IMG/VR virus record: IMGVR_UViG_3300042197_002243
Reading direction: 5' to 3' (one strand)
DNA from: a virus
DNA length: 64,000 nt
Every line of letters begins with the position of its first letter. Position 1 is the stretch's first letter. Positions 38,087 to 56,760 of this stretch are shown one piece after another. Under the pieces are notes generated by a model. The model searched no databases, had not been told where the DNA came from, and saw only the letters and a list, made by a program, of their open reading frames with translations. The translations under genes were made by a program, and so were the position numbers.

Positions 38087-38114
38087 GGTTTTAGGAGCAC
38101 GAGGACTTAACTGT

Positions 38115-38147
38115 GGCCAGTATAAGATGCTGGGGCAATACTGTCAA
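38115..38147 (-). promoter_or_regulatory. Promoter TTGACA-N17-TATACT-GGCC
   Basis: Read directly. Confidence 0.8.
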
Positions 38148-38220
38148 CTGGGTGAGAGTATTTATCAGCGAGTCTTATAAGATTTGGGAGGACTGTGCGG
38201 TTTTGGTAATCTCCGAGGTC

Positions 38221-38249
38221 TTGACATTTTCGCGGTTGTGTGTTAGAGT
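38221..38249 (+). promoter_or_regulatory. Plus-strand promoter TTGACA-N17-TAGAGT (extended -10)
   Basis: Read directly; no plausible plus-strand CDS downstream. Confidence 0.55.
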
Positions 38250-38382
38250 GCGGGCTAAGATCGCTATAAGAACTGACATTATAAGGGGTCTAAATGATAC
38301 GAATAAGTATCAGAAACTCAACCCATACTGATAAGTATCATTAAACACACAATTATCTCAGCTTAATTAAAAAAAGGCTTTT

Positions 38383-38580
38383 CTAATTGATTTTAACACC
38401 TTTTTGACGAATTTGGCGCTTAATTTGATTCAGTGCATGGCGACAAGAGGGTGTAGCACTGGTGAAGATTTGCACCCCTGAGACATGCTTCCAGACCAGA
38501 TGTGTGCTCGAACGCTGTAACTCAAAACCATTCGATTCCATCATTACAGTGAGTTCTTTCTTGAACTTTTGAGTGCTCAT
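38383..38580 (-). CDS. HicA-like mRNA interferase fold protein (start revised to MSTQKF)
   Basis: MESNGFELQRSSTHLVWKH.SG.QI....TPS...L.QI..QI matches the HicA pattern with the conserved His. Confidence 0.65.
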   Translation of the reverse strand: MSTQKFKKELTVMMESNGFELQRSSTHLVWKHVSGVQIFTSATPSCRHALNQIKRQIRQKGVKIN

Positions 38581-38587
38581 GATGTAA

Positions 38588-38728
38588 TCAAACGAGGTAG
38601 GATTTAGAACCACAGGAAAGGTAGAAAGCTACCATGCGTTCCGCTTCATCAAGAGTGCGAAAGAATTGTGATCTCCACTCACACTGATTGTAGGGAGTTT
38701 GGTAGCGAACTTCGTAACGGGTAAGCAT
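38588..38728 (-). CDS. 46-aa hypothetical (YQTPYN.CEWRSQ.F.TL.EA.RMV.FY.SCGS)
   Basis: Hand-translated. Confidence 0.6.
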   Translation of the reverse strand: MLTRYEVRYQTPYNQCEWRSQFFRTLDEAERMVAFYLSCGSKSYLV

Positions 38729-38852
38729 TAGTTTGCAGTCGATTGGATAGTGTTACCGATGAGATGAAACAACTCTCCTGTGTGATACCTTAAGGATGGG
38801 GAGAGTATAAAGAAGACCAGAAAGATGAGTGGGATAAATTGATTCTTTTTCA

Positions 38853-39053
38853 TCAGGAGTTATACATCACATCTTTCTCCATTTCATTCAGAGTTTTTTC
38901 ATTCCATTCTTCCTTTACAAAGTCACCATCAACAGTATAAAGACGGTTCACATAGTAATCATAAAGGTCCACATTGAGAGTAGAAAGATTCGTGAAAGCT
39001 TCGGAGATTGCAGTGTTGATCTCGACTTGGGTCATTTGAGTGGTGTTCTTCAT
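38853..39053 (-). CDS. Hypothetical protein, probably leaderless
   Basis: ATG lies 6 nt after the -10 box. Confidence 0.7.
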   Translation of the reverse strand: MKNTTQMTQVEINTAISEAFTNLSTLNVDLYDYYVNRLYTVDGDFVKEEWNEKTLNEMEKDVMYNS

Positions 39054-39055
39054 GT

Positions 39056-39117
39056 GGCCAAGATACCAAGGATTGGGGGTCAGTGGTGAGAATAGTGGAC
39101 AGCCGTGTGGCTGTCAC
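39056..39117 (-). promoter_or_regulatory. Early promoter cassette A (palindrome, TGGTATCTT, GGCC)
   Basis: Member of the repeated intergenic family. Confidence 0.8.
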
Positions 39118-39221
39118 CACCACCAGTCTTTGGTGTTGACTTTCATTCCCATGGCAGCACATAGTATGGGAAAGCCAATCGCAATCATCATCAACAAAGC
39201 TGCAGCGAGATAGTGGTTCAT
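39114..39221 (-). CDS. 35-aa membrane peptide
   Basis: Hand-translated; hydrophobic; ATGA-coupled to the upstream ORF. Confidence 0.5.
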   Translation of the reverse strand: MNHYLAAALLMMIAIGFPILCAAMGMKVNTKDWWW

Positions 39222-39382
39222 TGAAGCGCGACATCTACGGGGAGAAGATTAACAATAGCTTCCACACCAGCGCAATGCAAACTCAGGACAAATCGCATCG
39301 CGTCGTTCATAGTCGGAAACTCTACTGTGCGCTCTACTTTATCTTGAACGTTGGTGAAGGTAACAGTGCGAGATTCAGTCAT
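39218..39382 (-). CDS. 54-aa hypothetical MTESRTVTFTNV...
   Basis: Hand-translated. Confidence 0.55.
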   Translation of the reverse strand: MTESRTVTFTNVQDKVERTVEFPTMNDAMRFVLSLHCAGVEAIVNLLPVDVALQ

Positions 39383-39419
39383 GATCGTGTCAGTGAGTGT
39401 AAAGAATTGAAGGAAAGAT

Positions 39420-39734
39420 TCAGTTCAGGCGCATACCAGAGAAGAAGGGAATCGTAGCACCATTGTAGTTAAGAAACCACTGACCTTTTTTCTGGAAGAC
39501 ATACTCACCAGGGCAGCCATGCTCAGCGAGAATAGCATTGAGGCGAGACTTTGTGGTGGCAGTCTGCCAACCACCGTCGAAAAGCTCGATCCAGGTTTCA
39601 CCGATGCGAGCAATCAGGTTACCGTGAAGAAACACATCAGAGACATGAGTGCAGCTGATAACCTCAGTGTTTGCACTCTTGAAGTCAACACCAGCGGTGA
39701 TGGCTTTGTTCATCTGGAGTTCGATCTTCCGCAT
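39420..39734 (-). CDS. Conserved phage hypothetical (LHGNLIA...DGGWQT.TTKSRLNA)
   Basis: ORF track; own promoter. Confidence 0.75.
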   Translation of the reverse strand: MRKIELQMNKAITAGVDFKSANTEVISCTHVSDVFLHGNLIARIGETWIELFDGGWQTATTKSRLNAILAEHGCPGEYVFQKKGQWFLNYNGATIPFFSGMRLN

Positions 39735-39791
39735 GAGAAAGTGAAGAGAAAGGATTGGGAGGAGGTGGGGGTCGTTCCCTCCCCCTCATGT

Positions 39792-39854
39792 GGCCATAAT
39801 ACGATGGCCAGGGGCCCTCCACAAGGGGGCTTGTGCCACCTATTCGGCTGTCAC
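39792..39854 (-). promoter_or_regulatory. Early promoter cassette B (TTGTGG-N17-TATTAT-GGCC)
   Basis: Repeat family member with CACAAG-GGGG-CTTGTG inverted repeat. Confidence 0.8.
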
Positions 39855-40060
39855 ACCTCGATCAGTTGATTGACAACATCATCATCATAAGCTTGTCGAA
39901 TCTCATCAATTAGATCCTCTACAGTTTCATAGTCTGTGGTTAGAGTATTGTAGAGCGTATCAAACACAAATTGAGTCAAAGATTTTTGATCCATGCCATC
40001 AACAATGAAGTTGGCATAGTTCTCAACAAGAGTCGAAAAGTCGGGCATTGATTCAGTCAT
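39851..40060 (-). CDS. Acidic hypothetical protein
   Basis: ORF track. Confidence 0.7.
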   Translation of the reverse strand: MTESMPDFSTLVENYANFIVDGMDQKSLTQFVFDTLYNTLTTDYETVEDLIDEIRQAYDDDVVNQLIEV

Positions 40061-40074
40061 TTTGTTGTTGGGAT

Positions 40075-40242
40075 TCAGTTAGCAAAAAGGTTGGAAATCT
40101 TATCTACAATGTTGTCATAATCGCTGCGAGGATCGTATTCATCATCCTCACAAAACTCGCGGTTGTTTGATACAAGATTGTAGATTAGATCCCACTCGGA
40201 ATCAGTAAAGAACTCTTGAATAGCTTCTTTGGATTGTGTCAT
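40075..40242 (-). CDS. Acidic hypothetical protein (start revised to MTQSKE)
   Basis: Shares a 21-nt initiation sequence with the next gene. Confidence 0.6.
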   Translation of the reverse strand: MTQSKEAIQEFFTDSEWDLIYNLVSNNREFCEDDEYDPRSDYDNIVDKISNLFAN

Positions 40243-40273
40243 TTTGTTGTTAGGATTCGGAAGGGCAATCATG

Positions 40274-40444
40274 TCAAACAGTAGCGGGAGCTAGAGTTAC
40301 TTCAACTCGCTTCAGATTCAATCCTGCGAGTTGTGCATTGACGCGCTTGCAGATAAGCTCAGTGGGGTTTTTTAGGCGGGAAACTTCATACCAAATGGTG
40401 CGACAGCCGTCGTTGGTTTCGACTTGGATTCGGATCGTTTGCAT
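40274..40444 (-). CDS. 56-aa hypothetical MQTIRIQVET...
   Basis: Hand-translated. Confidence 0.55.
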   Translation of the reverse strand: MQTIRIQVETNDGCRTIWYEVSRLKNPTELICKRVNAQLAGLNLKRVEVTLAPATV

Positions 40445-40446
40445 GT

Positions 40447-40611
40447 TCAGTAGTTAGAAACAGTGGTGAAGATGATGCCAGTTTCATTATAGCGAAGATC
40501 CACATCGCACTGATACTCTTCGCTCAAGCTGTACGCGAGATCGTATGCTCGATCGAGATCAGTAGTAGTGTTCTCCCAAGGAGCGCCGTAGCACTTAACA
40601 TCAATTCGCAT
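40447..40611 (-). CDS. Hypothetical protein (start revised to MRIDVK)
   Basis: ATG follows the GAGG SD of the cassette. Confidence 0.7.
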   Translation of the reverse strand: MRIDVKCYGAPWENTTTDLDRAYDLAYSLSEEYQCDVDLRYNETGIIFTTVSNY

Positions 40612-40695
40612 CAGGTGATTCCTCTCAACATGGCCAAGATACCAAGAATCCGGGCGCACCACAAGGGGGGCTTGTGACAGTTTCTGTGCTGTCAC
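40612..40695 (-). promoter_or_regulatory. Early promoter cassette C with leader GTTGAGAGGAATCACC
   Basis: TTGTGG-N17-TATCTT-GGCC; GTGACAG...CTGTCAC. Confidence 0.85.
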
Positions 40696-40934
40696 ACGGT
40701 CTGCCACGGTTGAGCTTCCTTTATACTTGAATCGAAATACTTTTGCAGAATACTATCAATAACTGGATACCACTGTTCGTTAGCACTTGGATGGCCACAT
40801 TCTCTTGCTTGATTAAGAAACTTAAGGACACAGGTTTCTTCATCTTGAGTGAAGCTTACGCGATTGAAAGTAAAACCAGTTTGCATGTTGTTGTTCATTT
40901 CAAGAGCGATTGTGCAGGGATCTTTATACATCAA
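40692..40934 (-). CDS. Hypothetical protein
   Basis: ORF track; start uncertain. Confidence 0.6.
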   Translation of the reverse strand: MMYKDPCTIALEMNNNMQTGFTFNRVSFTQDEETCVLKFLNQARECGHPSANEQWYPVIDSILQKYFDSSIKEAQPWQTV

Positions 40935-41089
40935 TCATCCCCAAAGTTGTTGGCAAGAAAATCTTCAAGTTCAGTGAGTTTGGATTCACTCAAGTTCCAA
41001 ACATACTCACTGATAACTGTATCCAAAAGGTCAGAATCTTCACGACACTTTTCTTTCAGAAACCACTCAAGTTCGGTTCGGTTAGTCAT
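40931..41089 (-). CDS. 52-aa acidic hypothetical MTNRTELEWF...
   Basis: Hand-translated; GGAGG SD. Confidence 0.6.
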   Translation of the reverse strand: MTNRTELEWFLKEKCREDSDLLDTVISEYVWNLSESKLTELEDFLANNFGDD

Positions 41090-41244
41090 CATTTGTCCTC
41101 CACAAGATCAAACTTAGAATCAACACATTCCCAATCACGACACAAATCGTAGTCGGGTTCGTTGATCCATTCCTCTGCTTCTTCTTTGGTGTCGAAGACA
41201 ACAGCAGTCGTGTTAGTTTCAGTAACGTAGACAGTGTAAGACAT
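41089..41244 (-). CDS. 51-aa acidic hypothetical MSYTVYVTET...
   Basis: Hand-translated. Confidence 0.55.
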   Translation of the reverse strand: MSYTVYVTETNTTAVVFDTKEEAEEWINEPDYDLCRDWECVDSKFDLVEDK

Positions 41245-41246
41245 AA

Positions 41247-41495
41247 TCAGTTCAGCTCGCGGAGTTCGTTTTCAATGCAGTTGAAGATTTCCTCGTAGAG
41301 GTAATCATAATCGTCTTCCACATTGTTGAGAACTTGCTCTGCAATCTCACGGGATTGTGTCACTTGCTCTCCATTTTCATCCATCACGAATACATCAGGA
41401 TTGGTGAAGATAAATGCAGCAACAGGAGCATCTGCACCCTGTTCGGCAATCATACGCTCGACAGATTCTTTGAGTTGTTGTAGAGTTCGTGCCAT
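41247..41495 (-). CDS. Acidic hypothetical protein
   Basis: ORF track. Confidence 0.7.
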   Translation of the reverse strand: MARTLQQLKESVERMIAEQGADAPVAAFIFTNPDVFVMDENGEQVTQSREIAEQVLNNVEDDYDYLYEEIFNCIENELRELN

Positions 41496-41534
41496 TGTGT
41501 GAGTGTTAGTTTTTTGAGATTGAATTAGTTACAA

Positions 41535-41759
41535 TCAGTAGAGGAGAGAGAATGAACCACAGAAGCGACGAACCCATTGGAGAGTATCATAATGGGAGCG
41601 TGGCTTGCTCATCACCATGCTTTTATTGGTCTCAGGATTGAGAGCAACAGCAACATACTGGTGACCACATTCTTGCCATTCAGGTGTCACTTGTTGAATG
41701 AACATTTGGTTGACTTTGCCTTCCTTCCAGTTGGTGACGTAGGAGTAGACTTGATCCAT
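41535..41759 (-). CDS. Hypothetical protein (start revised to MDQVYS)
   Basis: ATG after the cassette SD. Confidence 0.7.
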   Translation of the reverse strand: MDQVYSYVTNWKEGKVNQMFIQQVTPEWQECGHQYVAVALNPETNKSMVMSKPRSHYDTLQWVRRFCGSFSLLY

Positions 41760-41841
41760 CAGGTGATTCCTCTCAACATGGCCAAGATACCAAAACTGGC
41801 TGCCCAGTGGGGAGACTGGTGGACAGCCTCCCCACTGGCAC
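41760..41841 (-). promoter_or_regulatory. Early promoter cassette D with 11-bp inverted repeat CCAGTGGGGAG/CTCCCCACTGG
   Basis: Repeat family member. Confidence 0.8.
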
Positions 41842-41849
41842 ATGATTTG

Positions 41850-42071
41850 TTATACCATCTTCAGCCCATAATCGTTAATCATAATGTCACGCACATGTTC
41901 ACGGTCGAAACTATCACCAGCAAAGTCAGCTCCAGAGTTAATGTATTTCTGTGTAGCTTCCATTACCATGTCCAACGTAGCTCCGATCTTGTAGATACCA
42001 TTCTCACCATAAAATGCGAGAACATAATGATAGAAATCAGACATCAAAATGGGATCGTAAATCATCTTCAT
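41850..42071 (-). CDS. Hypothetical protein (F.GDSFDRE.VRD motif)
   Basis: ORF track. Confidence 0.7.
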   Translation of the reverse strand: MKMIYDPILMSDFYHYVLAFYGENGIYKIGATLDMVMEATQKYINSGADFAGDSFDREHVRDIMINDYGLKMV

Positions 42072-42280
42072 TTGACAACGGTGTTAGAATCAGGATCGAA
42101 AGTCACCTCGGTGATGACATCAAACTCATTGGTCATTTTGACATAATTCCACTCATTATCATCCTCACCTTCCTGATAACAATGAATGAAACCTTCGGAG
42201 TCAACTTTTACAAAACAACCATCATAATCTTCGGCATCAAATTGATAACCTGCGGCAATTAGTGCTTCAGCGAAAGTCAT
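42068..42280 (-). CDS. Acidic hypothetical protein (start revised to MTFAEA)
   Basis: ATG after the cassette SD. Confidence 0.7.
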   Translation of the reverse strand: MTFAEALIAAGYQFDAEDYDGCFVKVDSEGFIHCYQEGEDDNEWNYVKMTNEFDVITEVTFDPDSNTVVK

Positions 42281-42363
42281 GGGGTGATTCCTCTCAACAT
42301 GGCCAAGATAGCAAGAATCTAGGAGCAATACAAGGGGGGTTGTGCCAGTTCTTCAACTGTCAC
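42281..42363 (-). promoter_or_regulatory. Early promoter cassette E
   Basis: TTGTAT-N17-TATCTT-GGCC; gtgccagtt-cttc-aactgtcac. Confidence 0.85.
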
Positions 42364-42383
42364 AAATTGTGTTCACTTTTTAC

Positions 42384-42683
42384 TCATCGGTTAAGCATCT
42401 TCCAAATGACAAAGATTGATACGATAGCAGCTAGAATCGGCAGAACAATTTGCCAATACGCTAATGCTGCCATGAACGCAAAAAGTTTCATCAACGCACC
42501 AAAGCTTGAACCACCACTAGACGATGAGCTTCCACCACTCACTTCACGCAAATTGCGAATGTAGATTGGATTATAAAGATGCTCAATCTCTTGCTTTGCA
42601 GTAGAATACGAACCAGATTGCACAGTGACAGTATAAGATGAGCCTGTCGGAACTGTTTTAATTTCTGCTTTATACGTTGCCAT
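42384..42683 (-). CDS. Membrane protein with C-terminal hydrophobic segment
   Basis: Ser/Gly linker followed by TM helices. Confidence 0.7.
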   Translation of the reverse strand: MATYKAEIKTVPTGSSYTVTVQSGSYSTAKQEIEHLYNPIYIRNLREVSGGSSSSSGGSSFGALMKLFAFMAALAYWQIVLPILAAIVSIFVIWKMLNR

Positions 42684-43117
42684 TATCGTGCGTACAGATA
42701 ACTACCTGCCCAATCAGCATGTTCCAGCAACCATTCACGTTGCTCGATGATTCGCAGATCATAACGAACACCTTTAGCGGGAGCTTTCCACGATGCAGAC
42801 TTATAAACTTGACCAGTTTTCTTGTCAATGAAACAATGAACAGAGCGAGATCCATTGGCATCCATCACAATCTTGTGATACTTTTTACCAGTCTCGGGAA
42901 AGAAATTGTAGTCACAAATGCCAGACTTAAGTAGAGCGATCTGTGCATCATGATACTCTACATCAGACGTGCGAAGTGCATGGGAACGAATAGAATAGTC
43001 GATGTAGTTTTGACGCAGTGCTTCACACAATGCGAAAGTGTGACCCAGGATAGCGTTTTCGATGTTACCTTGTGCCTCTTGTTGTGCAGAATACTTGGAA
43101 AGTGTGGTGGTGGTCAT
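42683..43117 (-). CDS. Conserved phage hypothetical (KKYHKI...SVHCFID..TG.VYK.ASWKAPAK..RY); start revised
   Basis: GGAGG SD before MTTTTL. Confidence 0.75.
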   Translation of the reverse strand: MTTTTLSKYSAQQEAQGNIENAILGHTFALCEALRQNYIDYSIRSHALRTSDVEYHDAQIALLKSGICDYNFFPETGKKYHKIVMDANGSRSVHCFIDKKTGQVYKSASWKAPAKGVRYDLRIIEQREWLLEHADWAGSYLYAR

Positions 43118-43121
43118 GACA

Positions 43122-43355
43122 TCAACCTCCGAAGATTTCGTCGAACAGATCACCCATCTCACGGCGATCATTCTCAAAATCAATCATGTTACGCATTTGC
43201 AGGAGAGTATCTTGCTCCATGCGAAGCTTCAGGATTTGCTCACCAAGATCGTGCAATTTGTTGTTGATCTGAATACGATCCAAACCGTCTACAGTGGTAA
43301 CGGTGATGGGCATCCCTTGCGACATTGTGGTGCGATCTGCGATGATGTGAGTCAT
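43122..43355 (-). CDS. Coiled-coil hypothetical (start revised to MTHIIA)
   Basis: ATG after the cassette SD. Confidence 0.7.
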   Translation of the reverse strand: MTHIIADRTTMSQGMPITVTTVDGLDRIQINNKLHDLGEQILKLRMEQDTLLQMRNMIDFENDRREMGDLFDEIFGG

Positions 43356-43436
43356 GTGGATTCCTCTCAACATGGCCATAATACGACGACCAAGGGCTCC
43401 GCACAAGGGGGCTTGTGACACTTATTCAAGTGGCAC
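43356..43436 (-). promoter_or_regulatory. Early promoter cassette F
   Basis: TTGTGC-N17-TATTAT-GGCC; gtgacactt-attc-aagtggcac. Confidence 0.85.
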
Positions 43437-43628
43437 AGGGGGTGTCTCTCCTTCTACTTCAGATGATCTAGCTTGTGGGGCAATGGTATCAACTTTCACA
43501 TTATTCACATAAACTGCAATTTCCCCCTGCAATTCTGTGGCATAATGTTGACCTAACAGGTATGCTTCTTCAAGTGAAGTGCAATGATGATGATTGATGC
43601 CATTTGTAATAAAGAACTCGTCTTGCAT
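43422..43628 (-). CDS. Hypothetical protein
   Basis: ORF track. Confidence 0.6.
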   Translation of the reverse strand: MQDEFFITNGINHHHCTSLEEAYLLGQHYATELQGEIAVYVNNVKVDTIAPQARSSEVEGETPPVPLE

Positions 43629-43634
43629 TTTAAT

Positions 43635-44555
43635 TTACCAACTCTTGGGAAGTGTGAAGTTGTAGTGTGAGAATACTTCACGATTAACTAATTTATAAGC
43701 ACCATAATCGTTGCGGTGAACATAACCCTCATGACCAGAGTTGATGTAATCAACACCGAGGTCGATCGTAGCGCGAACATTATCCCCAGTGACGGTGATT
43801 CCTTCCATCAACAACAATTTAGCTTCGGTGAGCAAATTAAACAGCAGCAACAGATTGCCACTCAGAACATTAGAAACTGGACGACCTTCGCGGATACACT
43901 TATTAACTGCAATCTTCAACGCTTCGGTTTCTTTCTTTGTCTCGGGATACTTAACAAAATTGCTAACCACACTTGCAAGACCAAGAATGTAATCAATTCG
44001 ACGGCGGCGGGTGGTAAATTGTGCATTTGGATCTACAAAATGAATACCAAGAAAGGGACCAGTAAGATACTCGGGGACGCCGAAATGTGCTTGCAATTCT
44101 TTGATTGAATTACCAGTATAATGTGTATGACAAACAAACACGAGATCACGCTCTAAAATACCTGGAACGGAGCTAAAGTCATAAGTGATAGTATTTGGCG
44201 TGTAATTGCTTTCACCACCATAACCAATAAAATCACCTTGATAGATTCCCTCAAACTGCGGGAAGTGTGCCAGAATGGTATGAAGAATTGCAGCAACCTT
44301 TTGATTATCGCTATGATTCTTCTCGATGTCTGCGTGAGTATAATTGATCTTAACTTTGACCTTATTGAATACACTTTTCGTACCAACGAAAAACTTACCG
44401 TTCTCGGGATTTGTACCGAATACAATAGCAGGAGCGCCATCGTATTTTACGGTGCAACTACCCTTACAGTTACGAAGGTAGTTGATAGTATTCTGCACAG
44501 TTTTCTTGCCGAGCAGTGCAGAATCTTCGGGATGTTCGAGGTGAGTGTTCTTCAT
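43635..44555 (-). CDS. ATP-dependent ligase-fold nucleotidyltransferase-like protein (DUF6267-like); start revised to MKNTHLEH
   Basis: KYDG (motif I), QGDF, HEGYV (motif IV), YKLV (motif V). Confidence 0.65.
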   Translation of the reverse strand: MKNTHLEHPEDSALLGKKTVQNTINYLRNCKGSCTVKYDGAPAIVFGTNPENGKFFVGTKSVFNKVKVKINYTHADIEKNHSDNQKVAAILHTILAHFPQFEGIYQGDFIGYGGESNYTPNTITYDFSSVPGILERDLVFVCHTHYTGNSIKELQAHFGVPEYLTGPFLGIHFVDPNAQFTTRRRRIDYILGLASVVSNFVKYPETKKETEALKIAVNKCIREGRPVSNVLSGNLLLLFNLLTEAKLLLMEGITVTGDNVRATIDLGVDYINSGHEGYVHRNDYGAYKLVNREVFSHYNFTLPKSW

Positions 44556-44557
44556 GT

Positions 44558-44619
44558 GGCCATCATACGCGAAAAAAGGGGTCCGTAAAGACCCCTTGTG
44601 ACAGTTTAAGCACTGGCAC
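44558..44619 (-). promoter_or_regulatory. Early promoter cassette G (TATGAT-GGCC, hairpin AAGGGGTC/GACCCCTT)
   Basis: Repeat family member. Confidence 0.8.
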
Positions 44620-44764
44620 ACTCTTGCAATTCTTTCACACGTTCATAGCGTAGATTACGCAATTCATTATACTGTTTGTGTTGTTCTTTTGTCAGTTGAA
44701 AATAGTTACGATGCCATTCATCACGCAACTCTTTCATTTGTTTCAGCACTTCAGATGATTTCAT
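44606..44764 (-). CDS. Hypothetical protein (start revised to MKSSEVL)
   Basis: ATG follows the stop of the upstream microgene. Confidence 0.6.
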   Translation of the reverse strand: MKSSEVLKQMKELRDEWHRNYFQLTKEQHKQYNELRNLRYERVKELQECASA

Positions 44765-44765
44765 T

Positions 44766-44888
44766 TTAGTAATCGTAGTCGGCAGTAAGGTATTCGTTGA
44801 AGTCAAAGCCTTCGTCTTCACGAAGTTCGGGAATGTCGAAGATTTCCCCAGGAGCATCAACAATCTCAGTCCAAAGTTCGTCGTACAT
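44766..44888 (-). CDS. 40-aa highly acidic microprotein MYDELWTEIVDAPGEIFDIPEL...
   Basis: Hand-translated; GAGGG SD and own promoter. Confidence 0.65.
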   Translation of the reverse strand: MYDELWTEIVDAPGEIFDIPELREDEGFDFNEYLTADYDY

Positions 44889-44906
44889 AGTGTCCCTCAA
44901 GAACAT

Positions 44907-44967
44907 GGCCATAATACATGCAATGGGTTGCGGTTGGCAAGATAGTGGACAGTTCGATTAGTGGCTT
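44907..44967 (-). promoter_or_regulatory. Early promoter cassette H (TTGCCA-N18-TATTAT-GGCC)
   Basis: Repeat family member. Confidence 0.75.
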
Positions 44968-45176
44968 CCTTTGATGTCTTCTCCACTTTTTTTGAGTAAT
45001 GTTCTCATGTTTGATTGATGTGCTGATAATTCATCTTCAGCGCGGTGACGCATCCTACGAGCAATTACATTCGCTCTCCGGGCGCTTGTGGCTCGCTGCT
45101 GTTGAGTTTGTGCAGGTGTTGATGGTGTTAATCTACCACGCTCTAATTGCTCTTGAAAATCCTTAAATGACTTCAT
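44958..45176 (-). CDS. Basic protein with T4 capsid-targeting-like N-terminus (MKSFKDFQE)
   Basis: Resembles MKTYQEFIAE; late promoter upstream. Confidence 0.6.
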   Translation of the reverse strand: MKSFKDFQEQLERGRLTPSTPAQTQQQRATSARRANVIARRMRHRAEDELSAHQSNMRTLLKKSGEDIKGSH

Positions 45177-45192
45177 CTTTCGTCTTTTTAGG

Positions 45193-45199
45193 TATTTAG
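45193..45199 (-). promoter_or_regulatory. Late promoter CTAAATA inside the early region
   Basis: Plus-strand tatttag ending 16 nt before the ATG. Confidence 0.6.
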
Positions 45200-45207
45200 A
45201 TAATCAT

Positions 45208-45375
45208 CTATAATTTGACAATTTTATTGTAATCTAATTTATGAACAACAACACGAACATCGTGAGAACGATGTTGTCCTTTTGCCACCAAAATAGAAAG
45301 GGAAGAGTCACACACAAATGTGACAATTCCCACAACGTTCTTATACTTAACAGAATCACCCTCAGACAACAGCAT
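45208..45375 (-). CDS. SH3/KOW-like small protein (start revised to MLLSEGD)
   Basis: GD.V.Y....G.V..V pattern. Confidence 0.55.
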   Translation of the reverse strand: MLLSEGDSVKYKNVVGIVTFVCDSSLSILVAKGQHRSHDVRVVVHKLDYNKIVKL

Positions 45376-45819: not shown

Positions 45820-45821
45820 AA

Positions 45822-46055: not shown

Positions 46056-46068
46056 CTCTTTTTGCTAA

Positions 46069-46233
46069 TTACTCCTTAATTTTAGTAGATTGTTCGACGT
46101 TTGTCAACGCTTGCTGATGATAGTATGCTTTATACATGCGATCATCGCGTTGAATTAGAAACAAATTCCAACCAATGATTGCCACCACACCAAGTAAAGT
46201 GCCAACCAAATACTTGCGTTCAGTTTTAGTCAT
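46069..46233 (-). CDS. 54-aa single-pass membrane protein
   Basis: Hand-translated; ATGA overlap. Confidence 0.55.
   Translation of the reverse strand: MTKTERKYLVGTLLGVVAIIGWNLFLIQRDDRMYKAYYHQQALTNVEQSTKIKE
46079..46107 (-). promoter_or_regulatory. Sigma70-type promoter TTGACA-N17-TAAAAT
   Basis: Read directly. Confidence 0.7.
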
Positions 46234-46610
46234 GCTGCAAGAGCTCCAGAGGGGATTTCTTGACTTTCCAAATAGGTTTCGTGCCAGTCACAAGTATCAT
46301 AGCACAACCAACCTTCAGATTCAGTGAAGATGTAACCATACTCTTCATTGTTCTGAAGATACTCACCCAGGTTCTTATCAAGGCGAGGAGGAGTATCTTC
46401 ACCACGAGCAGAATAATACTCAGGTTGGTGGTCATCATTCCAAGCAACACTCATGTCGCCACCATCAATCAGTTCAGCAGCAAGTTCTTTGCTATTATAA
46501 TGAGTCTTCAGAATACGACCCAACCACTCAGGATAACCATCCCAATGATGATACACTGAGAGCACAGATTCGTCAGAAAGTTGGATACCGATGCGGGAGC
46601 GGGTTGCCAT
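46230..46610 (-). CDS. Conserved phage hypothetical (M.TRS.I...Y.HWDGYP family)
   Basis: ORF track; own cassette. Confidence 0.75.
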   Translation of the reverse strand: MATRSRIGIQLSDESVLSVYHHWDGYPEWLGRILKTHYNSKELAAELIDGGDMSVAWNDDHQPEYYSARGEDTPPRLDKNLGEYLQNNEEYGYIFTESEGWLCYDTCDWHETYLESQEIPSGALAA

Positions 46611-46629
46611 GCGATGTTTGTCTCAACAT

Positions 46630-46692
46630 GGCCAAGATACCAAGAATCTAGGAGCAGCACAAGAGGGCTTGTGACAGTTTCTCAACTGTCAC
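46630..46692 (-). promoter_or_regulatory. Early promoter cassette I with perfect GTGACAGTT-N4-AACTGTCAC
   Basis: TTGTGC-N17-TATCTT-GGCC. Confidence 0.85.
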
Positions 46693-46891: not shown

Positions 46892-46974
46892 AACTACCTC
46901 CAATGTGAGGCTATCATAACATAGATAACCTGAATTATGTATTAATTTAATAATTTCTTTGGGATCATGAAATA

Positions 46975-47259: not shown

Positions 47260-47317
47260 AATTACTCCTTTGACTTACAAACCTTTATGTTCTTTATGTA
47301 GTTATTTTGTTTTAATT

Positions 47318-49593: not shown

Positions 49594-49766
49594 TTAACAA
49601 ATACCGTTCCTGATTGTGGTTGAACACGGTGATTTTTAATGAATTTCTGTGCTTCACGAACCGTAGAAACCATTTCTAATTGATAACCACCATGTATAAT
49701 AATTAGGTTCTTTTTACCATAAGGAACCGCAGCATATCCGTCGTCAGTAATAAAACCTTGTTTCAT
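49590..49766 (-). CDS. 58-aa hypothetical MKQGFITDDGYAAVPYG...
   Basis: Hand-translated; ATGA overlaps at both ends. Confidence 0.65.
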   Translation of the reverse strand: MKQGFITDDGYAAVPYGKKNLIIIHGGYQLEMVSTVREAQKFIKNHRVQPQSGTVFVK

Positions 49767-50305
49767 GATACTAAAAATTGCTTTTCATATTCTTTCAGTT
49801 CTTCGGGAACATTCAGAATATTAGAATCAATCGGCATAGACTTGTTCCATCTTACAGCATTCTCTGGTCTTTTGTAAAGCTTAATGCCTAGATGATTATA
49901 CTTCAGATGTGTGGGAACTTTGACCTCATAAGTATCACCATCATTTGATGTCAAGTAACTGAGTTCCAGGTTCTCCTCCGCTGTGACCACAATGGTCTGA
50001 CAAGAGAGCAAAAAGATTTCCTGAAACTTGTCAAGGCTGGACAAATACACGTCTGGGTTGTCCAGAATCATGCGCGAAATGAATTGTGGAGACAAACAAT
50101 GGTCATGTACGACCTTTTTCTTTACACTTTTGTTTTTCAGTGCATTTTCGCTGATCAGACCAGTAGGATTAGGGATGCCCGAGTCAAAGACGCCGATATA
50201 ATAGATTCTAGTAATCGGGCGAGCAAACTCTGGTTTTCCCCAGTTATGCAAATTAGCCTTGAGACTATTGTATGCGGTCTCGCAGTAGGATTTCCAGTCT
50301 TTCAT
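49763..50305 (-). CDS. Hypothetical protein, possible degenerate His-Me (HNH-like) fold
   Basis: HDH..SP...VT.EEN spacing; function weakly supported. Confidence 0.55.
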   Translation of the reverse strand: MKDWKSYCETAYNSLKANLHNWGKPEFARPITRIYYIGVFDSGIPNPTGLISENALKNKSVKKKVVHDHCLSPQFISRMILDNPDVYLSSLDKFQEIFLLSCQTIVVTAEENLELSYLTSNDGDTYEVKVPTHLKYNHLGIKLYKRPENAVRWNKSMPIDSNILNVPEELKEYEKQFLVS

Positions 50306-52291
50306 TTTTTGCAGTGAAGAAAATAGAAGTAACGTGCTGCGTTGGTAGGGACATATTGTACCACATCACAACCCCTATAGGTATCCACAACCACAAATTT
50401 TCTGTCTATTGGACTTGGTTGCATTTCTACCCAGTTCGCGGCAAAGTTGATACCAAATGCAAGCACTGCAAAGCCAGTAAAAATTAGAATAGCATTTTTC
50501 ACGGCGTTTCATCGCTCCAGTAGTATCTTAGTTTATCACCATTAGCGTGAATATTCAAGTGATAGATTTTACCATCTTGAGTATAACACCCAATCCACAG
50601 ACTGCGTTCATTCATACTTTCCAGGTGAAACATTTCCACATCTTTCAGCACGATTTCATCTGGATTTTCAGTTCTACTTTTTTTCTCTCGTTCCCACTGA
50701 TCCTTCTCAATTTCAGCAAGACGCAACATAGCATCCCCGTGTTTCTCATAGATTTCATCAAGGGCATCAAGTGCCTTACGTTCTGCTTCACGACGCTCTG
50801 CTTCCTCAAACATTTCGTCGGGATATGGTTCTTGGTTTCTCATAAGTTCTCGGATTTTGTCTTTTCCGTATTCAGTGAGTTCGTGTTTTTTGTTGCGAAG
50901 TTCTTCTACTTCTTGTTGGGTGAGATTAACCCACGGCATATCATCATTCATTCCGATTGCTCCCAAAGTTTTTCACGCAGCATTCTAACACATTTATTCC
51001 ATTCGTAGGAATTCGTGTCGTGTTCTTTCGGCATCCATTCTTCAACGGCATCTACAATCTCATCACACATATCAATAGAGAAACCAAGTTGATGTCTCAT
51101 CACATTCCACAACGATGGTGGGCGTTTGAAATGTTTTTCAAGTAGTTTGTCAAGGTCAAATACACCATCTTCCTTTGCTTGTTTCATAGCATCACGAAGC
51201 CCTTCTGCAACTTGTTCTGGTGTTTGTGGTGATGGTTGAAATTCAGTCATTTCAGTTCCTCTTCATTTTGTTCAATCTGAAAGATAGCATTTAGAAACTC
51301 CAAACCATACTTACCCACAACCCAGGCATCTTTATCCTCAAAGAACCGATCACCCACAGTTTCCATATCATATCCTTCTGTGTTTTTATTGAAGAAAGCA
51401 ACGACATAGCAACTATCACCAGAGTCGTGAGTATACCACTTGACGAGTTCATACTTGTTGTTGACTTTGCTCCAACGGAACTCTACATTACGAAATCTCA
51501 TTGTTCTCCTCAAAATCAAACCATTCATACAAAGAATTCATCGCACCCTCAACCACACAATCAACCACAGCATCTTGGTGCGGGTTTTCTACATGCTTGT
51601 GAGCACGATTATAACCATAACGGACACCTTCTTCAAGTGCCATTTCTAATACTTTGCGAAAGTTGGGTTTCATTCTTCATCCTCTTCATAAGGGAACATT
51701 TCATCATACTCTTCATCAGTCAGAGTAAGATACTGAACATCAGCATTTTTGTGCTCTTCGGCATACACCAACTGATAGTGAGCAAAACTACTTTCAGAAG
51801 TGCTGGCGTATTCTAAAAGACCATCAACAAAGCATAGGTAGTTCATTCAAGCACCTCCCAGTGTGCGTCAGATTTGTCACCGAAACGATTGGTTCCAGTT
51901 CGTGTGCTAACCCAGAAGAAGTATTTGCGGTTTTCTGATGCCAAGAATAACTCACCACCAGTGTCTTGCTCTACAATACAGACGGGATTGTTGTCCATAA
52001 TGTTACACAGACGGTTCTTCGCCTTGCTGCTTTTGGGTTTTACGGTTACTTTTCTCATTTTGGATCTCAAGTTTCAGTTTGCGGATACCAGTGATAAAAT
52101 AAGCGAAGTCGCGGGCTTCAGTGATAGGTTTGATCTCACCACACACATCACACTTGCTCTCATAAACAGATGAACAACCTACAGAATAAACACCATAGGT
52201 AGTACCACAATCAAAGCATGTGTTGTATGCTTGTTCAAGACGTTTGAGTAGTGCTTTCTTCTCTTTGAGTGTCATAGGTCTGTTTCAATAT

Positions 52292-52352
52292 GGCCATTAT
52301 ACATCTTCAGAACCGCAATCATCCTCGGAGTGGTCAGTTTCCAAACTGTCTT
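52292..52352 (-). promoter_or_regulatory. Early promoter cassette J (TATAAT-GGCC; tggtcagtt-tcca-aactgtctt)
   Basis: Degenerate family member inside the 3' end of the upstream gene. Confidence 0.7.
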
Positions 52353-53512
52353 TCAACCGTTCCATTACTTCATCAAGAGAGTATGTTTTCTGTTTACCAG
52401 TATCAATATCCTCTACAAGTTGGTGTAAATAATCAAGAAATTCTTTGGGATATGTTTCATCCATGTTGATACTGCACCAGAACCACTGATAACATTCCTC
52501 ATATGGATCATCCTCTTTTAGTAGAGCATAGTTCTCATAGTTTCCACTGATAAGATCACGCCACATCTTAAAGTTGTTCCAGATTTCTCTCCATCCTGTT
52601 TGAAAACAGTGACCGAAGTAATACTCAATCCAGTTTAGTTTCTTTGCCATTTACCTCATAACGTCCGTAACCATTAGTTTCATTATACCCTTCCCAGAAA
52701 GAGTTCCAAGCAGATTGACATTCGGGTGTTGTATCATCCTTATCACATTCAAGTTTAGCAGGACGATGGCCGCTCAACAGTTCATACAAACCAAGACATT
52801 TTTGATAGTATTCTTTGTGATGATCGAGATTCTCTTTAACTACTGTACGAATAGTAGAATAAATCTCATGCGGTGATGCGTCGCCATTGATTGCATCATG
52901 CACCCAATCTTCCAGTTTCTCAAGAGAGTATTTTTTGTAATCAAAGTCCATAATTAAAACCAAGAACCTTTGAGTGATTTGTGTGATTGTTTCATTGCCT
53001 TATAGAGTTTTTTAATCTCTTGATAGGCATTTTCTGCAGTGATTTTACCACCGAGGGCCATATTTGTCAAATAGGAGACATGGTGGGAAAAGTTATTTAA
53101 ATTATTAATTGTAGCAATATCCAGAAAACTCACATCGGCTTCTGGATTCATCGGGGGAGTTGGATACAAAAACTCTTCTTTTGTTTGGTGTTTTGGTGTT
53201 GTCATTTTAGCACTCATCCATTTTAAGGTAATCTAAATCAACATTTTCGCGGTAATCCCAGTTCCAAGTGCGAGAAAGCACATCAATATCAAACCCAAAC
53301 TTGTATGCCCAGAACAGAATACTCAACAGACCATTACCACCAGAAGTAACTTGAACGTAAGGCCAACTGGGGCAATCGTTCCAACTTACAGAAAATTGAA
53401 ACAAACTCCAGCGTTTAATGTTCACAACTTGAACATAAACTTCGTGTCCAAAGTCATAACGATATTTAAATTTAATTGGGTTCATTGTTTTGTAGAGACC
53501 TCATATTCTACA

Positions 53513-53542
53513 ATTATACCATCCTTGAAGTGTAATCGGCAA
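53513..53542 (-). promoter_or_regulatory. Sigma70-type promoter TTGCCG-N18-TATAAT
   Basis: Read directly. Confidence 0.5.
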
Positions 53543-54279
53543 GTAGGCCAATCTTCCCATGCACCATCCCACCGTTCAGGATAGATTTCAATATATTTGG
53601 TGATTCTATTTGCTCGCAGGCACCCACGCTCACCCGTGGGCACCCATTCAAAGTTTTTCCATTTGTATTCCGAATTATACCGCACATCATTTCTTTCGAT
53701 GAGTTCAAGGGTATGTGTGTTACGATGGTCAGAATACCACAATCGACCACTAGGATCAATCCAGTAGTGAGTCATGGTGCCACCGATACCATAGTCCTCT
53801 ATGTCCTTTGTTTGACAGGTTACATCAGTAAACTGAGGGCCCAAATTATATGATGAGCGCACATAATCGAACATACCCATGGTTACTTACCCGTAATACA
53901 TGATACTGCAATCGCAGTGGACTTCGTTGCTTCTGCCATTTGTCTATATCCAGTTCCAACATAGATCTGCCCACCGACTACAGTGACAGCCATGATTCCC
54001 CAGAATACATAATACCAACTAGATTTTACTTGGTGATTCATTTTGCGTTCTTGAATAGATTGTGATAGTATACCACCTCTGGATTATCTAGGTCTTTACA
54101 ACGAGGGTAATAGATACCGTCTCGGTAACAACCATTTTTAGGATCTTGTTTGTCATATTTTATCATCGCTGCAGGGTGGTCTCTGAAGTTACAGAATTCC
54201 CCATGGCGGCGAATATAATTGTCCAAACACAAAGCACCAACAAATGGTGCAAGACCCTGGAGTATGTAGAGAGTATACA

Positions 54280-55461
54280 TTAGCGTTTGATTACAGAAAC
54301 TGCAGGTTGACCTTGGTTGAAGATAGTATCGACAACCGCTTGCACTTTGCGGGAGGTGCTGATACCCACATTATCATAAACGGGCACACAAACCAACCCA
54401 AATGTCTTGGATTTATCACCAAGTCGAATGACACGGCCAATGGTCTGGGAGATACCAATGTAGTCCATGTTTCGCATGAACAGCACTGCTTCAAGACCAG
54501 ACACGTTGATACCTTCAGAAAGGATGCTATGATGCATCACAACAAACTTCTTGGAGGAATCTTTCCCCCAGGCATTAAGAGTGTCAAAGAACTGCTCACG
54601 ATTGACCTTCTGACCATCAATCACAGCACCAGTCTTGGATGTAATCATCATCCAAGAATAACCGCGCTGCTGCAGTTGCACACAGAAATCAGATTCTGAT
54701 ACCAGACCGATGATCTGTTTGGTAGTGCGAGCACAAATCAAAATCTTCTGAACACCTTGCTCGTCGATTGTCTCGATCAAATTGTCAGCATCGCGGGAGA
54801 AAATCACCTGCTTACCCTTGACCATTTGCAGTTGCTTGACAACAACCTTCGGAGGAAGAATATAACCCTGCTTCACCAGTTCGGGTGCAGGAACCTGACA
54901 GATTACTTGGCCATAAACTTCAGGCAGGTTCATGCCAGGTTTGGAAATAGTAGCAGAATGTTTAGGAGTTGCAGTAAAGAAATAGCAGCGGTCAGCAGTA
55001 GAAGCAAAGTGCTCCGTAGCAGGAAAAAAGTGACGCTGAACGCTGTTATGTGCCTCATCAAAGTAAATGGTATCGACAGCAATTCCTGCCTCTTGAATAC
55101 GATTCAGAGAGTTATAGGTGGTGAAAATCAGTTGATGACGATTTGCAATTTCGCAAGCAACATCATGTGCCTGAATTTCAGATACTTTAGTGGTGCTGAA
55201 ATGATGAGTCTCACCAGAGTGGACGTGCATCACTTCAGCATTAGTGATATGCTCAAGAAATTCGCTGGACAACTGATCTGCCAGCAAGATGCGCGGCGCA
55301 CAGACTACAATAGTCTTGGCAGTTTCTGATTGAAACAGACGCAGAGCATCATAGATCATTTTTAGGGTCTTACCCCCGCCCGTTGGCACCAAAATCTGAC
55401 CTTTCTTATACTTCTGCATCGCAGCAACAGCGCGGTGTTGATGTGGGCGGAGCGTGATCAT
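54280..55461 (-). CDS. SF2 DEAH-box helicase (ResIII-like); start revised to MITLRPHQ
   Basis: LRPHQ Q-motif, PTGGGKT, DEAH, TATP, LSEGIN, QTIGRVIR. Confidence 0.9.
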   Translation of the reverse strand: MITLRPHQHRAVAAMQKYKKGQILVPTGGGKTLKMIYDALRLFQSETAKTIVVCAPRILLADQLSSEFLEHITNAEVMHVHSGETHHFSTTKVSEIQAHDVACEIANRHQLIFTTYNSLNRIQEAGIAVDTIYFDEAHNSVQRHFFPATEHFASTADRCYFFTATPKHSATISKPGMNLPEVYGQVICQVPAPELVKQGYILPPKVVVKQLQMVKGKQVIFSRDADNLIETIDEQGVQKILICARTTKQIIGLVSESDFCVQLQQRGYSWMMITSKTGAVIDGQKVNREQFFDTLNAWGKDSSKKFVVMHHSILSEGINVSGLEAVLFMRNMDYIGISQTIGRVIRLGDKSKTFGLVCVPVYDNVGISTSRKVQAVVDTIFNQGQPAVSVIKR

Positions 55462-55478
55462 GAATTGCGTTTCAATAG

Positions 55479-55540
55479 GGCCATTATACGACAAAAGGGG
55501 GTCCTTGTGGACCCCTCTGTGACGGTTCTAAAACTGGATC
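55479..55540 (-). promoter_or_regulatory. Early promoter cassette K (TATAAT-GGCC; hairpin GGGGTCC/GGACCCC)
   Basis: Repeat family member. Confidence 0.75.
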
Positions 55541-56636
55541 AGAGGCGATCCAGAGGCACCAGGCGATTCAGGGAGCGCAGTTTCTTGTGATCTTCATCGT
55601 CAGCGAACTGAGGAATCACACCCAGAATCGTAAAAGGACGCTCTTTAGCAACAGAAATCGAGATACCATTCAGTTGATTGTTAATCAATTGAACAGACTC
55701 TGCATAGAACATTTCCAGATCTTTCTGGAAGTTGTCAGAGTTCTCGCGCACTTTTTCTGCAGTGCGATCAGTGCTGTAGAGCACGATGTAGGTGTGGTGA
55801 CCTTTCATTGCATTTGCAAGAATGTGGTCAATCCAACAACGTCGAGCATTGGTCTTGCCAGTGCTGTAGAAAACCAGTTGGTTCTCATCAAAAGGAGTCG
55901 GTTCATCGGGCATTGCGATACCAAGTTCCTTCACTTCTTTGCAGCTGCCAAGGTAATCAACCCACTCAGCGCGATCCTTCAGAATCACAATCGGGTCACC
56001 TTCAGGAGTTACTTCAGAAAGAATGCGATTAGCAATCTTAGTGATGGTGCCCGCGATGTTGTTGAAGAAACGCTCTACTTCAACTTCGTTATACAACCAA
56101 GACTCAATCGAAGCATAGTCTGGGTTCAGGAGATTGCGGGAAATAGCAGCAGTACCAGCGCGAACAAAGTCGTTCATATCAGCACGTCGAGCCACAAGGT
56201 GGTCATTGGCAATGATGCCATCCACAATGTCGGACATTGCTTCATATTCTTCAGGATAAGTATAGACCGCGACAGGAATATACTTCCAACCTTGCATAAT
56301 AGCAGCACGAATACGAGTGCGGCCATCTTTGATCTTGCCGTTGCTGGAAACAATCGGAGGGAAGCAAGTATAGTTCCAACCGTTGCGCTCATAGCTGTAA
56401 GCGATGGTTTCGGTAGCACCATCTTGGTTTTGGTCATCACGAACTGCTGCGTTGTTCAGTTCGTCAGAATACAGTTTGTATCCAGAAATATCCAGTTTGG
56501 AAAACTTCAGAAACTTTCCATACTTTTGGAAGGAATCGAGTTCTTCTTGTGTCCAAAGACCTTCGTATTGTGAAGGATCAAGGTCGGCACAAGTCACCTT
56601 GAATTTTTTAACGGAGTTAATCATTGCAATTTGCAT
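55539..56636 (-). CDS. Protein with ParB/Srx-like N-terminal domain
   Basis: PPIV....KIKDGRTRIRAA...G...IPV..Y. Confidence 0.6.
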   Translation of the reverse strand: MQIAMINSVKKFKVTCADLDPSQYEGLWTQEELDSFQKYGKFLKFSKLDISGYKLYSDELNNAAVRDDQNQDGATETIAYSYERNGWNYTCFPPIVSSNGKIKDGRTRIRAAIMQGWKYIPVAVYTYPEEYEAMSDIVDGIIANDHLVARRADMNDFVRAGTAAISRNLLNPDYASIESWLYNEVEVERFFNNIAGTITKIANRILSEVTPEGDPIVILKDRAEWVDYLGSCKEVKELGIAMPDEPTPFDENQLVFYSTGKTNARRCWIDHILANAMKGHHTYIVLYSTDRTAEKVRENSDNFQKDLEMFYAESVQLINNQLNGISISVAKERPFTILGVIPQFADDEDHKKLRSLNRLVPLDRL

Positions 56637-56699
56637 AGTAAATGAACAACAAGACTGCTAGGAGCATGTCTTGGTCAGCGAGTCATCCCTCACCAACAG

Positions 56700-56760
56700 G
56701 GCCAATATAACCGATTTAAAAGAACTCGTCAAGGCCCCCGACCAGTTCATGAGTTGTCAC
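56700..56760 (-). promoter_or_regulatory. Early promoter cassette L (TTGACG-N17-TATATT-GGCC)
   Basis: Repeat family member. Confidence 0.75.

Follow-up and report, generated by a model that had tools for sequence, protein, structure and literature searches.

The DNA analysed here, hereafter called the window, is a stretch of 64,000 nucleotides from a virus (IMG/VR record IMGVR_UViG_3300042197_002243), and the element in question is a GGCC tetranucleotide that directly follows the −10 hexamer in a series of its promoters. The window has a G+C content of 37%, and coding is nearly all on the minus strand from about 2.8 kb on. Profile scans of the open reading frames (ORFs) revealed T4-type neck, sheath-stabiliser and baseplate genes as well as two giant structural genes, which are followed by a tryptophan halogenase, 2-oxoglutarate (2OG)-Fe(II) oxygenases, a helicase and numerous ORFs of 35–130 amino acids (aa). 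The gene order is that of Syn9, with synteny across the halogenase, the 2OG oxygenases, the small genes and the helicase. A megablast search of a phage collection gave short, weak DNA matches, all of them to T4-like cyanophages (S-CREM1, Bellamy, DSL-LC02 and P-SSM2), and no close cultured relative was found in that collection. We conclude that the source of the promoters is a T4-like cyanophage that is Kyanoviridae-like and has freshwater or estuarine relatives. Rfam found no known RNA families in the 34–60 kb region.

The original prediction listed thirteen positions at which GGCC abuts the 3′ side of a minus-strand TATNNT hexamer, and this arrangement is present at 13 of 13. The window contains 14 copies of TATNNTGGCC, every one on the minus strand, against an expectation of 1.40 ± 1.08 from 100 dinucleotide shuffles, among which the largest count was 5. 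The fourteenth copy, at 37065, is intragenic and has no cassette context, as is also the case for TAATATGGCC at 61773. GGCC is the most frequent tetranucleotide following the 582 minus-strand TATNNT hexamers of the window. A comparison of the total GGCC count with a Markov expectation had been proposed as a check; the window holds 45 against 42.5 expected under an order-2 model. Because the total matches the expectation, the motif is concentrated in promoters and not enriched overall.

Alignment of the 13 copies on the −10 hexamer revealed that GGCC is one part of a repeated unit of about 100 bp, hereafter called the cassette. An upstream inverted repeat, GTG(A/C)CAG-N8-CTGTC(C)AC, has a 3′ arm that ends 28–31 nt before the hexamer and is followed downstream by a variable GC-rich stretch, often with a second hairpin. 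Position 57802 reads TATAAT-AGCT, as the original prediction had noted when setting it apart, but its upstream GTGTCCAC element and hairpin place it in the same class as the thirteen. A terminator-like hairpin with a T run is present in three copies (44558, 55479 and 57802), and inverted-repeat hairpins occur in most copies; fold z-scores of the cassettes go down to −5.1. The −10 element has the form G-TATNNT in 14 of 14 cassettes. It is followed by the tetranucleotide, then A-Y-R-T (Y, pyrimidine; R, purine), and then either the leader (A)TGTTGAGAGGAATC and ATG or an ATG at once; some copies carry a Shine-Dalgarno (SD) sequence in the leader and others have a putatively leaderless ATG. The leader ATGTTGAGAGGAATC is identical in six window copies. 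The claim that the hexamer varies and the tetranucleotide does not is correct for the thirteen copies; however, the tetranucleotide is not isolated, as it is surrounded by the conserved block G-TATNNT-GGCC-A-Y-R-T. All 14 cassettes lie within 38–58 kb among the ORFs of 35–130 aa, and none lies in the 34-kb structural block. A SigF-type GGTA −12 element was considered and rejected, as GGTA occurs only in the TATCTT subset. Within the inverted repeat, a single fixed position frequently distinguishes the two arms (GTG-A/C-CAG against CTG-T/G-C(C)AC; TGTCCAC contains an additional C), for example at 40674–40695, 46671–46692 and 43415–43436. The upstream inverted repeat may function as a hairpin in RNA, as a cruciform in DNA or as a site for a protein.

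The cassettes, all on the minus strand, differ mainly in their upstream halves and leaders. Cassette 1 (38084–38147) is without the upstream inverted repeat and has a TTGACA-17-TATACT promoter (hexamer 38119–38124, GGCC 38115–38118) ahead of an ATG at 38086 that opens a 55-aa ORF. In cassette 2 (39051–39117), the inverted repeat at 39095–39117 is followed by TATCTT (39060–39065), GGCC (39056–39059) and an ATG at 39053 that coincides with the predicted +1, which makes this gene a leaderless candidate. Cassette 3 (39787–39854) has the inverted repeat at 39833–39854, a CACAAG-C5-CTTGTG hairpin over the −35 region, TATTAT (39796–39801), GGCC (39792–39795) and a G/C-rich hairpin leader. Cassette 4 (40609–40695; inverted repeat 40674–40695, TATCTT 40636–40641, GGCC 40632–40635) carries the leader ATGTTGAGAGGAATC and the ATG at 40611 of gene MRIDVKCY. 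An 11-bp hairpin replaces the −35 element in cassette 5 (41757–41841), between the inverted repeat at 41819–41841 and TATCTT (41784–41789), with GGCC at 41780–41783 and ATG at 41759. Cassette 6 (42278–42363) consists of the inverted repeat at 42342–42363, TATCTT (42305–42310), GGCC (42301–42304) and ATG at 42280. Cassette 7 (43353–43436; inverted repeat 43415–43436, TATTAT 43378–43383, GGCC 43374–43377) has an SD sequence and an ATG near 43355, which starts gene MTHIIA. Cassette 8 (44553–44619) has the inverted repeat at 44598–44619, a terminator-like GGGGTC..GACCCC-T6 over the −35 region, TATGAT (44562–44567) and GGCC (44558–44561), and the ATG at 44555, at the predicted +1, belongs to a DUF6267 protein whose gene is a leaderless candidate.

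The upstream element of cassette 9 (44886–44960) is degenerate (CTGTCCAC); its promoter, TTGCCA-18-TATTAT (hexamer 44911–44916, GGCC 44907–44910), precedes an ATG near 44888 (gene MYDELW). Cassette 10 (46608–46692) comprises the inverted repeat at 46671–46692, TATCTT (46634–46639), GGCC (46630–46633) and the ATG at 46610 of gene MATRSRIG. A degenerate upstream element is also found in cassette 11 (52273–52350), with TATAAT at 52296–52301, GGCC at 52292–52295 and ATG at 52275. Cassette 12 (55459–55540) contains a terminator-like GGGGTCC..GGACCCC-CTTTTG, TATAAT (55483–55488), GGCC (55479–55482) and the ATG at 55461 of the helicase (ResIII/DEAD). Cassette 13 (56634–56760) has a TTGACG-17-TATATT promoter (hexamer 56704–56709, GGCC 56700–56703) and a long leader that ends in an ATG at 56636. 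In cassette 14 (57782–57850), the GTGTCCAC element and a CCCCTCAGAG..CTCTGAGGGG-TTT hairpin precede TATAAT (57806–57811), AGCT (57802–57805) and an ATG at 57784. A possible further promoter, TATGAT-AGCC-TCACATTGGAGGTAGTT-ATG, was noticed at 46903–46918 on the minus strand, without the upstream element and in an AT-rich gap.

In three copies (39056, 39792 and 44558) an ATG lies exactly 7 nt past the hexamer, as GGCC-AC-ATG. Because of these three ATGs and the conserved Y-R, we infer a start site 7 nt after the hexamer, which would put GGCC at −6 to −3. The Pfam profile of the DUF6267 protein (43635–44555) begins at residue 3 counted from the ATG at the predicted +1, and this arrangement is kept in relatives. 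The genes whose ATG lies within 44553–44567, 39051–39065 and 39787–39801 on the minus strand are therefore candidates for leaderless early mRNAs. After the cassette at 39792, the minus-strand stretch 39685–39795 is without an SD sequence and has a G/C-rich hairpin (GAGGGGGAGGGAACGACCCCCACCTCC) and a pyrimidine-rich tract, the ATG of the next ORF being at 39734. The hairpin leader is conserved in contigs 46010_11548, 42298_1897 and 42197_2149, and it may function as a structured leader or correspond to a small RNA. The same cassette has three GGCC within 25 bp (GGGCCCCTGGCCATCGTATTATGGCC; window 39806–39816 and 39792–39801). A plus-strand TACGAT-GGCC at 39806 mirrors this arrangement and is probably incidental.

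Conservation in related phages had been proposed as a further check, and it changes the description of the element. Loci of relatives were fetched from IMG/VR with the leader pattern TATNNT-NNNN-ATGTTGAGAGGAATC, in which the tetranucleotide was left free. This search returned 43 stretches with 44 distinct cassettes, of which 26 have GGCC, 17 AGCC and one GGCT. A hidden Markov model (HMM) was also built from the 13 window cassettes with the tetranucleotide masked as N; among the 97 distinct non-window cassettes it detected, GGCC occurs in 50, AGCC in 37, GGCT in 6 and AGCT in 4. Position −6 is only G or A and position −3 only C or T, i.e., transitions alone and no transversion among the 97. The columns G(−5), C(−4) and T(+2) are each 96/96, and G(−13) and A(−2) are each 95/96. 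G stands second after the −10 hexamer in every one of the 110 cassettes counted (13 from the window and 97 from relatives). The contigs are 70–90% identical to the window, and the inner bases of the hexamer, the spacer and the −35 region vary freely in them while G(−5) and C(−4) are invariant. The leader beside the tetranucleotide is nearly as conserved as the tetranucleotide itself. When the upstream element alone was used as the anchor, 101 promoters were found, 81 of them RGCY (GGCC 44, AGCC 30, GGCT 6 and AGCT 1) and 20 others; the 20 include a helicase-type promoter in a long relative, G002, that reads TATAGT-AGTT-TCAACAAC, as in Syn9.

The two outer positions of the tetranucleotide vary independently in the masked-HMM set, where 50 GGCC were observed and 50.2 expected (Fisher p = 1). 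Selection of the palindrome as a unit should show coupling of −6 and −3, and its absence suggests that the palindrome is not selected as such. The choice among the spellings has a clade effect: GGCC makes up about 90% (46/51) in contigs 84–90% identical to the window, against 52% family-wide, and more distant contigs, including three long records (G001–G003), have mostly AGCC. The 13 of 14 GGCC in the window are unremarkable at the clade frequency (p = 0.59) and unexpected at the family frequency (p = 0.0013). Orthologous promoters within the clade have also lost the site. In contig 32282_3033, the promoter of the MYDELW ortholog (window 44907) reads AGCC, the orthologs of gene MATRSRIG (window 46630) have AGCC in 32282_992 and GGCT in 32282_3033, and a cassette of the 39056 type has AGCC in 46010_11548, ahead of a different gene. 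As judged from these sequences, the thirteen GGCC are the local spelling of a purine-G-C-pyrimidine (RGCY) element in an early-promoter/stem-loop cassette. The idea that this position is constrained beyond recent duplication in a set of minus-strand phage promoters is supported; the divergent window copies at 38115, 52292, 55479 and 56700 have little in common except TATNNT-GGCC.

The original prediction took the GGCC palindrome, and hence its methylation, to be the selected feature, and it pointed to a GGCC in the same position of the Synechocystis hemJ promoter. This is correct, as that promoter has GGCC at −6 to −3. In Synechocystis 6803, the hemJ (slr1790) promoter requires GGm4CC (m4C, N4-methylcytosine) for correct expression, with GGTC as suppressor mutations, and a 2026 preprint describes promoters with a discriminator GGCC as consistently down, by about log2 −0.5, without M.Ssp6803II. 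With the start site placed as above, 13 of the 14 window cassette promoters resemble the hemJ type in having GGCC between the −10 hexamer and the start. However, methylation and its effect are demonstrated for the hemJ type, whereas in the phage the site is not conserved among orthologs. Because the corresponding promoters of related phages have AGCC or GGCT in place of GGCC, a methylation switch at the cassette promoters is unlikely. A narrower form would confine the methylation-sensitive early regulon to the clade of the window, where host m4C or 5-methylcytosine at the discriminator GGCC would tune the cassette promoters and the imprint of the previous host would set early expression. The hemJ and preprint results and the near fixation of GGCC in the window and its close clade speak for it. 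However, a G-to-A or C-to-T change removes the site in orthologous promoters of close relatives, −6 and −3 are uncoupled, at least 40% of the family cassettes are not GGCC, and AT-rich tetranucleotides serve the same promoter class in Syn9 and DSL-LC02.

No cytosine or N4/N6 methyltransferase family was found among the 30 window ORFs scanned, and PF01555 and PF00145 had no match in the three long relatives G001–G003, of which G002 is 100% complete. The order-2 observed/expected ratio of GGCC is also about 1 (window, 1.06; G002, 1.07; G003, 1.23), with neither avoidance nor excess of the tetranucleotide. These ratios also led us to reject GGCC avoidance as the reason for the G/A switch at −6. 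Taken with the points above, the clade-restricted methylation regulon is in our judgment very improbable. If it were true, early gene dosage would bear the epigenetic mark of the preceding host, and AGCC and GGCT in other clades would be variants that have escaped methylation dependence.

The second promoter class of the original prediction, which lacks GGCC, is real. It comprises five host-like minus-strand promoters without RGCY, near the consensus TTGACA-17/18-TAxAAT: 35984–36012 (TTGACA-17-TAAAAT), 37720–37748 (TTGACG-17-TATAAT), 46079–46107 (TTGACA-17-TAAAAT), 53513–53542 (TTGCCG-18-TATAAT) and 57250–57279 (TTGACA-18-TAGAAT). Their −35 elements are near-perfect, whereas the cassette promoters average 3.6 of 6 matches, their −35 being weak and in several copies missing. 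Given the invariant G(−5), the preceding purine and the poor −35, set against host-like promoters that have a perfect −35 and no RGCY, a compensating contact with RNA polymerase is suggested, and we infer a contact of sigma region 1.2 at the cassette discriminator. A discriminator read by sigma region 1.2 had been named in the original prediction as the alternative to methylation, and it fits the G in 110 of 110 cassettes better. A GGGA element at −6/−3, probably read by sigma 1.2, alters the affinity of RNA polymerase 10- to 100-fold (PMC3526302). The cassettes share with this element (Feklistov 2006, Haugen 2006, as cited in PMC3526302) the positions −6/−3, a purine at −6 and G(−5) on the non-template strand, as well as its appearance at promoters with a poor −35. 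They differ from it at −4 and −3, where they have C and Y and the GGGA element has G and A, and recognition by the cyanobacterial SigA is putative.

A GC-rich discriminator could also be a physiological sensor, through dependence on negative supercoiling or a response to guanosine tetraphosphate (ppGpp), which would restrict the onset of infection to energised cells. Discriminator G/C content sets supercoiling sensitivity across bacterial phyla (PMC8422995), and stringent control was part of the alternative in the original prediction. However, strict G/C is confined to two positions, the same class is served by AGCT variants and by the AT-rich discriminators of Syn9 and DSL-LC02, and G at the sigma 1.2 position favours stable, not unstable, open complexes (PMC3526302). 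We hold a sensor to be very unlikely. Another possibility is that T-RGCY-A, or the whole block from −13 to +10, serves as operator for a protein of the phage or the host, e.g., a repressor for early-gene shut-off, or the site of a recombination enzyme. All four variants fit the degenerate palindrome RGCY between an invariant T(−7) and A(−2), the block would overlap the inferred start site, which is ideal for a repressor, and T4-like cyanophages lack MotA and AsiA (PMC5780444), so that other regulators are expected. However, the analysis yielded no DNA-binding protein as a candidate, T(−7) follows from the −10 element and R/Y from preferences known for RNA polymerase, AGCC and GGCT are not true palindromes, and RGCY is missing from some promoters of the same genomes that have the same upstream element. 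An operator is thus a doubtful explanation, of low probability.

The upstream element extends beyond the close relatives. Matches to GTGMCA-N8-14-TGKCNAC number five in Syn9 (forward, 43–49 kb), three in DSL-LC02, two in S-CREM1 and five in G002, against 0–1 in controls. The Syn9 copies are on the coding strand in the small-gene region, one of them ahead of the helicase. As in the window, the Syn9 upstream motif GTGMCAG-N8-CTGTCCAC stands about 29 nt before a −10-like hexamer, ahead of small genes and the helicase. However, the discriminators of Syn9 and DSL-LC02 are AT-rich and the leader is another one (ATAAGAGTCAAAGG): Syn9 reads TATTCT-ATAA-GAGTCAAAGG, and DSL-LC02 reads TATTAT-TAAA-GAGTCAAAG ahead of the ortholog of gene MRIDVKCY (window 40632). 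The AT-rich tetranucleotides beside the upstream element imply that the class exists without a GC discriminator and that RGCY and its leader are the spelling of a sub-family. Use of the window motif throughout Syn9 was rejected, as its 177 kb hold just two TATNNTRGCC. Early genes of T4-like cyanophages (Syn9 and P-TIM40) reportedly carry a novel element and middle genes host-like promoters. These early and middle classes would presumably map onto the two promoter classes of the window, and the upstream motif may be the published one.

Several tetranucleotides are strongly depleted in bases 1–50000 of Syn9 (NC_008296), namely CCGG (0, against an order-2 expectation of 33), GGCT (7, against 105), AGCT (32, against 120), AGCC (14, against 42) and GGCC (8, against 36); all RGCY together number 61, against 303 expected. 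Nothing comparable to this RGCY depletion is seen in the window, G002 or G003.

The window and its close relatives show a mosaic synteny. In two related stretches (L037 and L041), homology to the window stops exactly at the hexamer at 42310, in cassette 6; gene MTFAEALIA stands behind three unrelated upstream halves; and one cassette was found ahead of different genes among relatives. The block 52690–52948 is located elsewhere in two other relatives (L013 and L025). The wider block 52625–52963 corresponds to 11181–11462 of L013 and 5891–6143 of L025, where it adjoins the halogenase region, about 3–5 kb from which it lies in the window; by its sequence, we read it as the relocation of a cassette-flanked gene.

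These features recall the promoter-early stem-loop (PeSL) cassettes of the T4-like phages RB49/phi1, PST/T4 and nt-1/KVP40 (Arbiol 2010, PMC2839356; Comeau 2014, PMC4122927). PeSLs likewise recur as intergenic cassettes of roughly 100 bp among the small ORFans of a hyperplastic region, with an early-type promoter, an SD sequence, a start codon and, between or over the promoter boxes, a stem-loop that is in many cases terminator-like. They also accompany the insertion, replacement and relocation of genes among close relatives, the junctions lying in the −10/SD block; PeSL crossovers between the SD sequence and the −10 element were sequenced in RB49/phi1 (PMC2839356). The PeSL consensus varies among T4-like groups, and the 2014 survey does not mention cyanophages (PMC4122927); S-PM2 is reported to be without dense PeSLs (PMC4503421). 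However, the −35 of PeSLs is near-consensus, whereas it is weak or absent in the window cassettes, which add a conserved upstream inverted repeat (about −65 to −41) and the GC discriminator RGCY. Some window copies may also drive leaderless genes, and the promoter and terminator activity of the window cassettes is putative. The best reading is that the cassettes are PeSL-like early-promoter cassettes with a clade-specific RGCY discriminator.

Recombination by itself could explain the constancy of the tetranucleotide, which would have no function of its own but hitch-hike in a block that recombination or gene conversion has made uniform among cassette copies, so that the constraint would reflect recent common descent. 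The breakpoints in the −10/leader block, the exchange of cassettes between genes, a flanking leader almost as conserved as the tetranucleotide and the ascertainment of loci through that leader agree with this. It does not readily explain why G(−5) and C(−4) are fixed across contigs as divergent as those compared here while the inner hexamer bases, the spacer and the −35 region vary freely, why −6 and −3 show transitions alone, or why the divergent window copies keep little but TATNNT-GGCC. We consider pure hitch-hiking unlikely, if somewhat less so than the other alternatives discussed here.

The probable explanation, in our assessment, is that GGCC is the discriminator, at −6 to −3, of a PeSL-like early cassette in which RGCY and not the palindrome is under selection, kept by contacts with RNA polymerase and by recombination. 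The selected bases would be a purine at −6, G(−5), C(−4), a pyrimidine at −3, A(−2), Y(−1) and R(+1). Host RNA polymerase with the primary sigma factor would open the cassette promoters from a good −10 element (G-TATNNT), and the non-template R-G just past it would contact sigma region 1.2, as in GGGA-type discriminators, offsetting a weak or missing −35. The Y-R step would place initiation 7 nt past the hexamer, and the upstream inverted repeat, common to Syn9, DSL-LC02 and S-CREM1, would mark the cyanophage early class. The 13 GGCC and one AGCT of the window would then express a clade-level preference for G at −6. Uniformity may be kept by function together with recombination between cassette copies, which would also shuffle the small genes, as PeSLs do in other T4-like phages.

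Several points weigh against this explanation. C(−4) and Y(−3) depart from the GGGA optimum, and the invariant C(−4) is unexplained. The numbering from −6 to −3 depends on the start site placed by the ATGs and the Y-R step, and the early timing of the cassette promoters is likewise deduced. The conservation from −13 to +10 could in part come from ascertainment, as loci were collected by the leader pattern, and from gene conversion, and not from contacts with RNA polymerase. The near-fixed G(−6) in the clade of the window is not accounted for. In the covariation test, changes in the stem extension of the inverted repeat were mostly one-sided (T-A versus T-G). A T-G pair forms in RNA and not in DNA.

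The analysis gives the epigenetic hypothesis a more precise and largely negative answer, in which R-G-C-Y appears to be selected and not a methylatable palindrome. A dense array of PeSL-like cassettes that bears signs of gene shuffling is also recorded for cyanophages, where such arrays were previously reported absent (S-PM2) or the group was not surveyed. The invariant G(−5)C(−4) may serve as a handle on how cyanobacterial RNA polymerase recognises the discriminator. Together with the upstream inverted repeat, G-TATNNT-RGCY-AYR would offer a practical means of annotating uncultured freshwater cyanomyoviruses for early promoters, start sites and leaderless genes.

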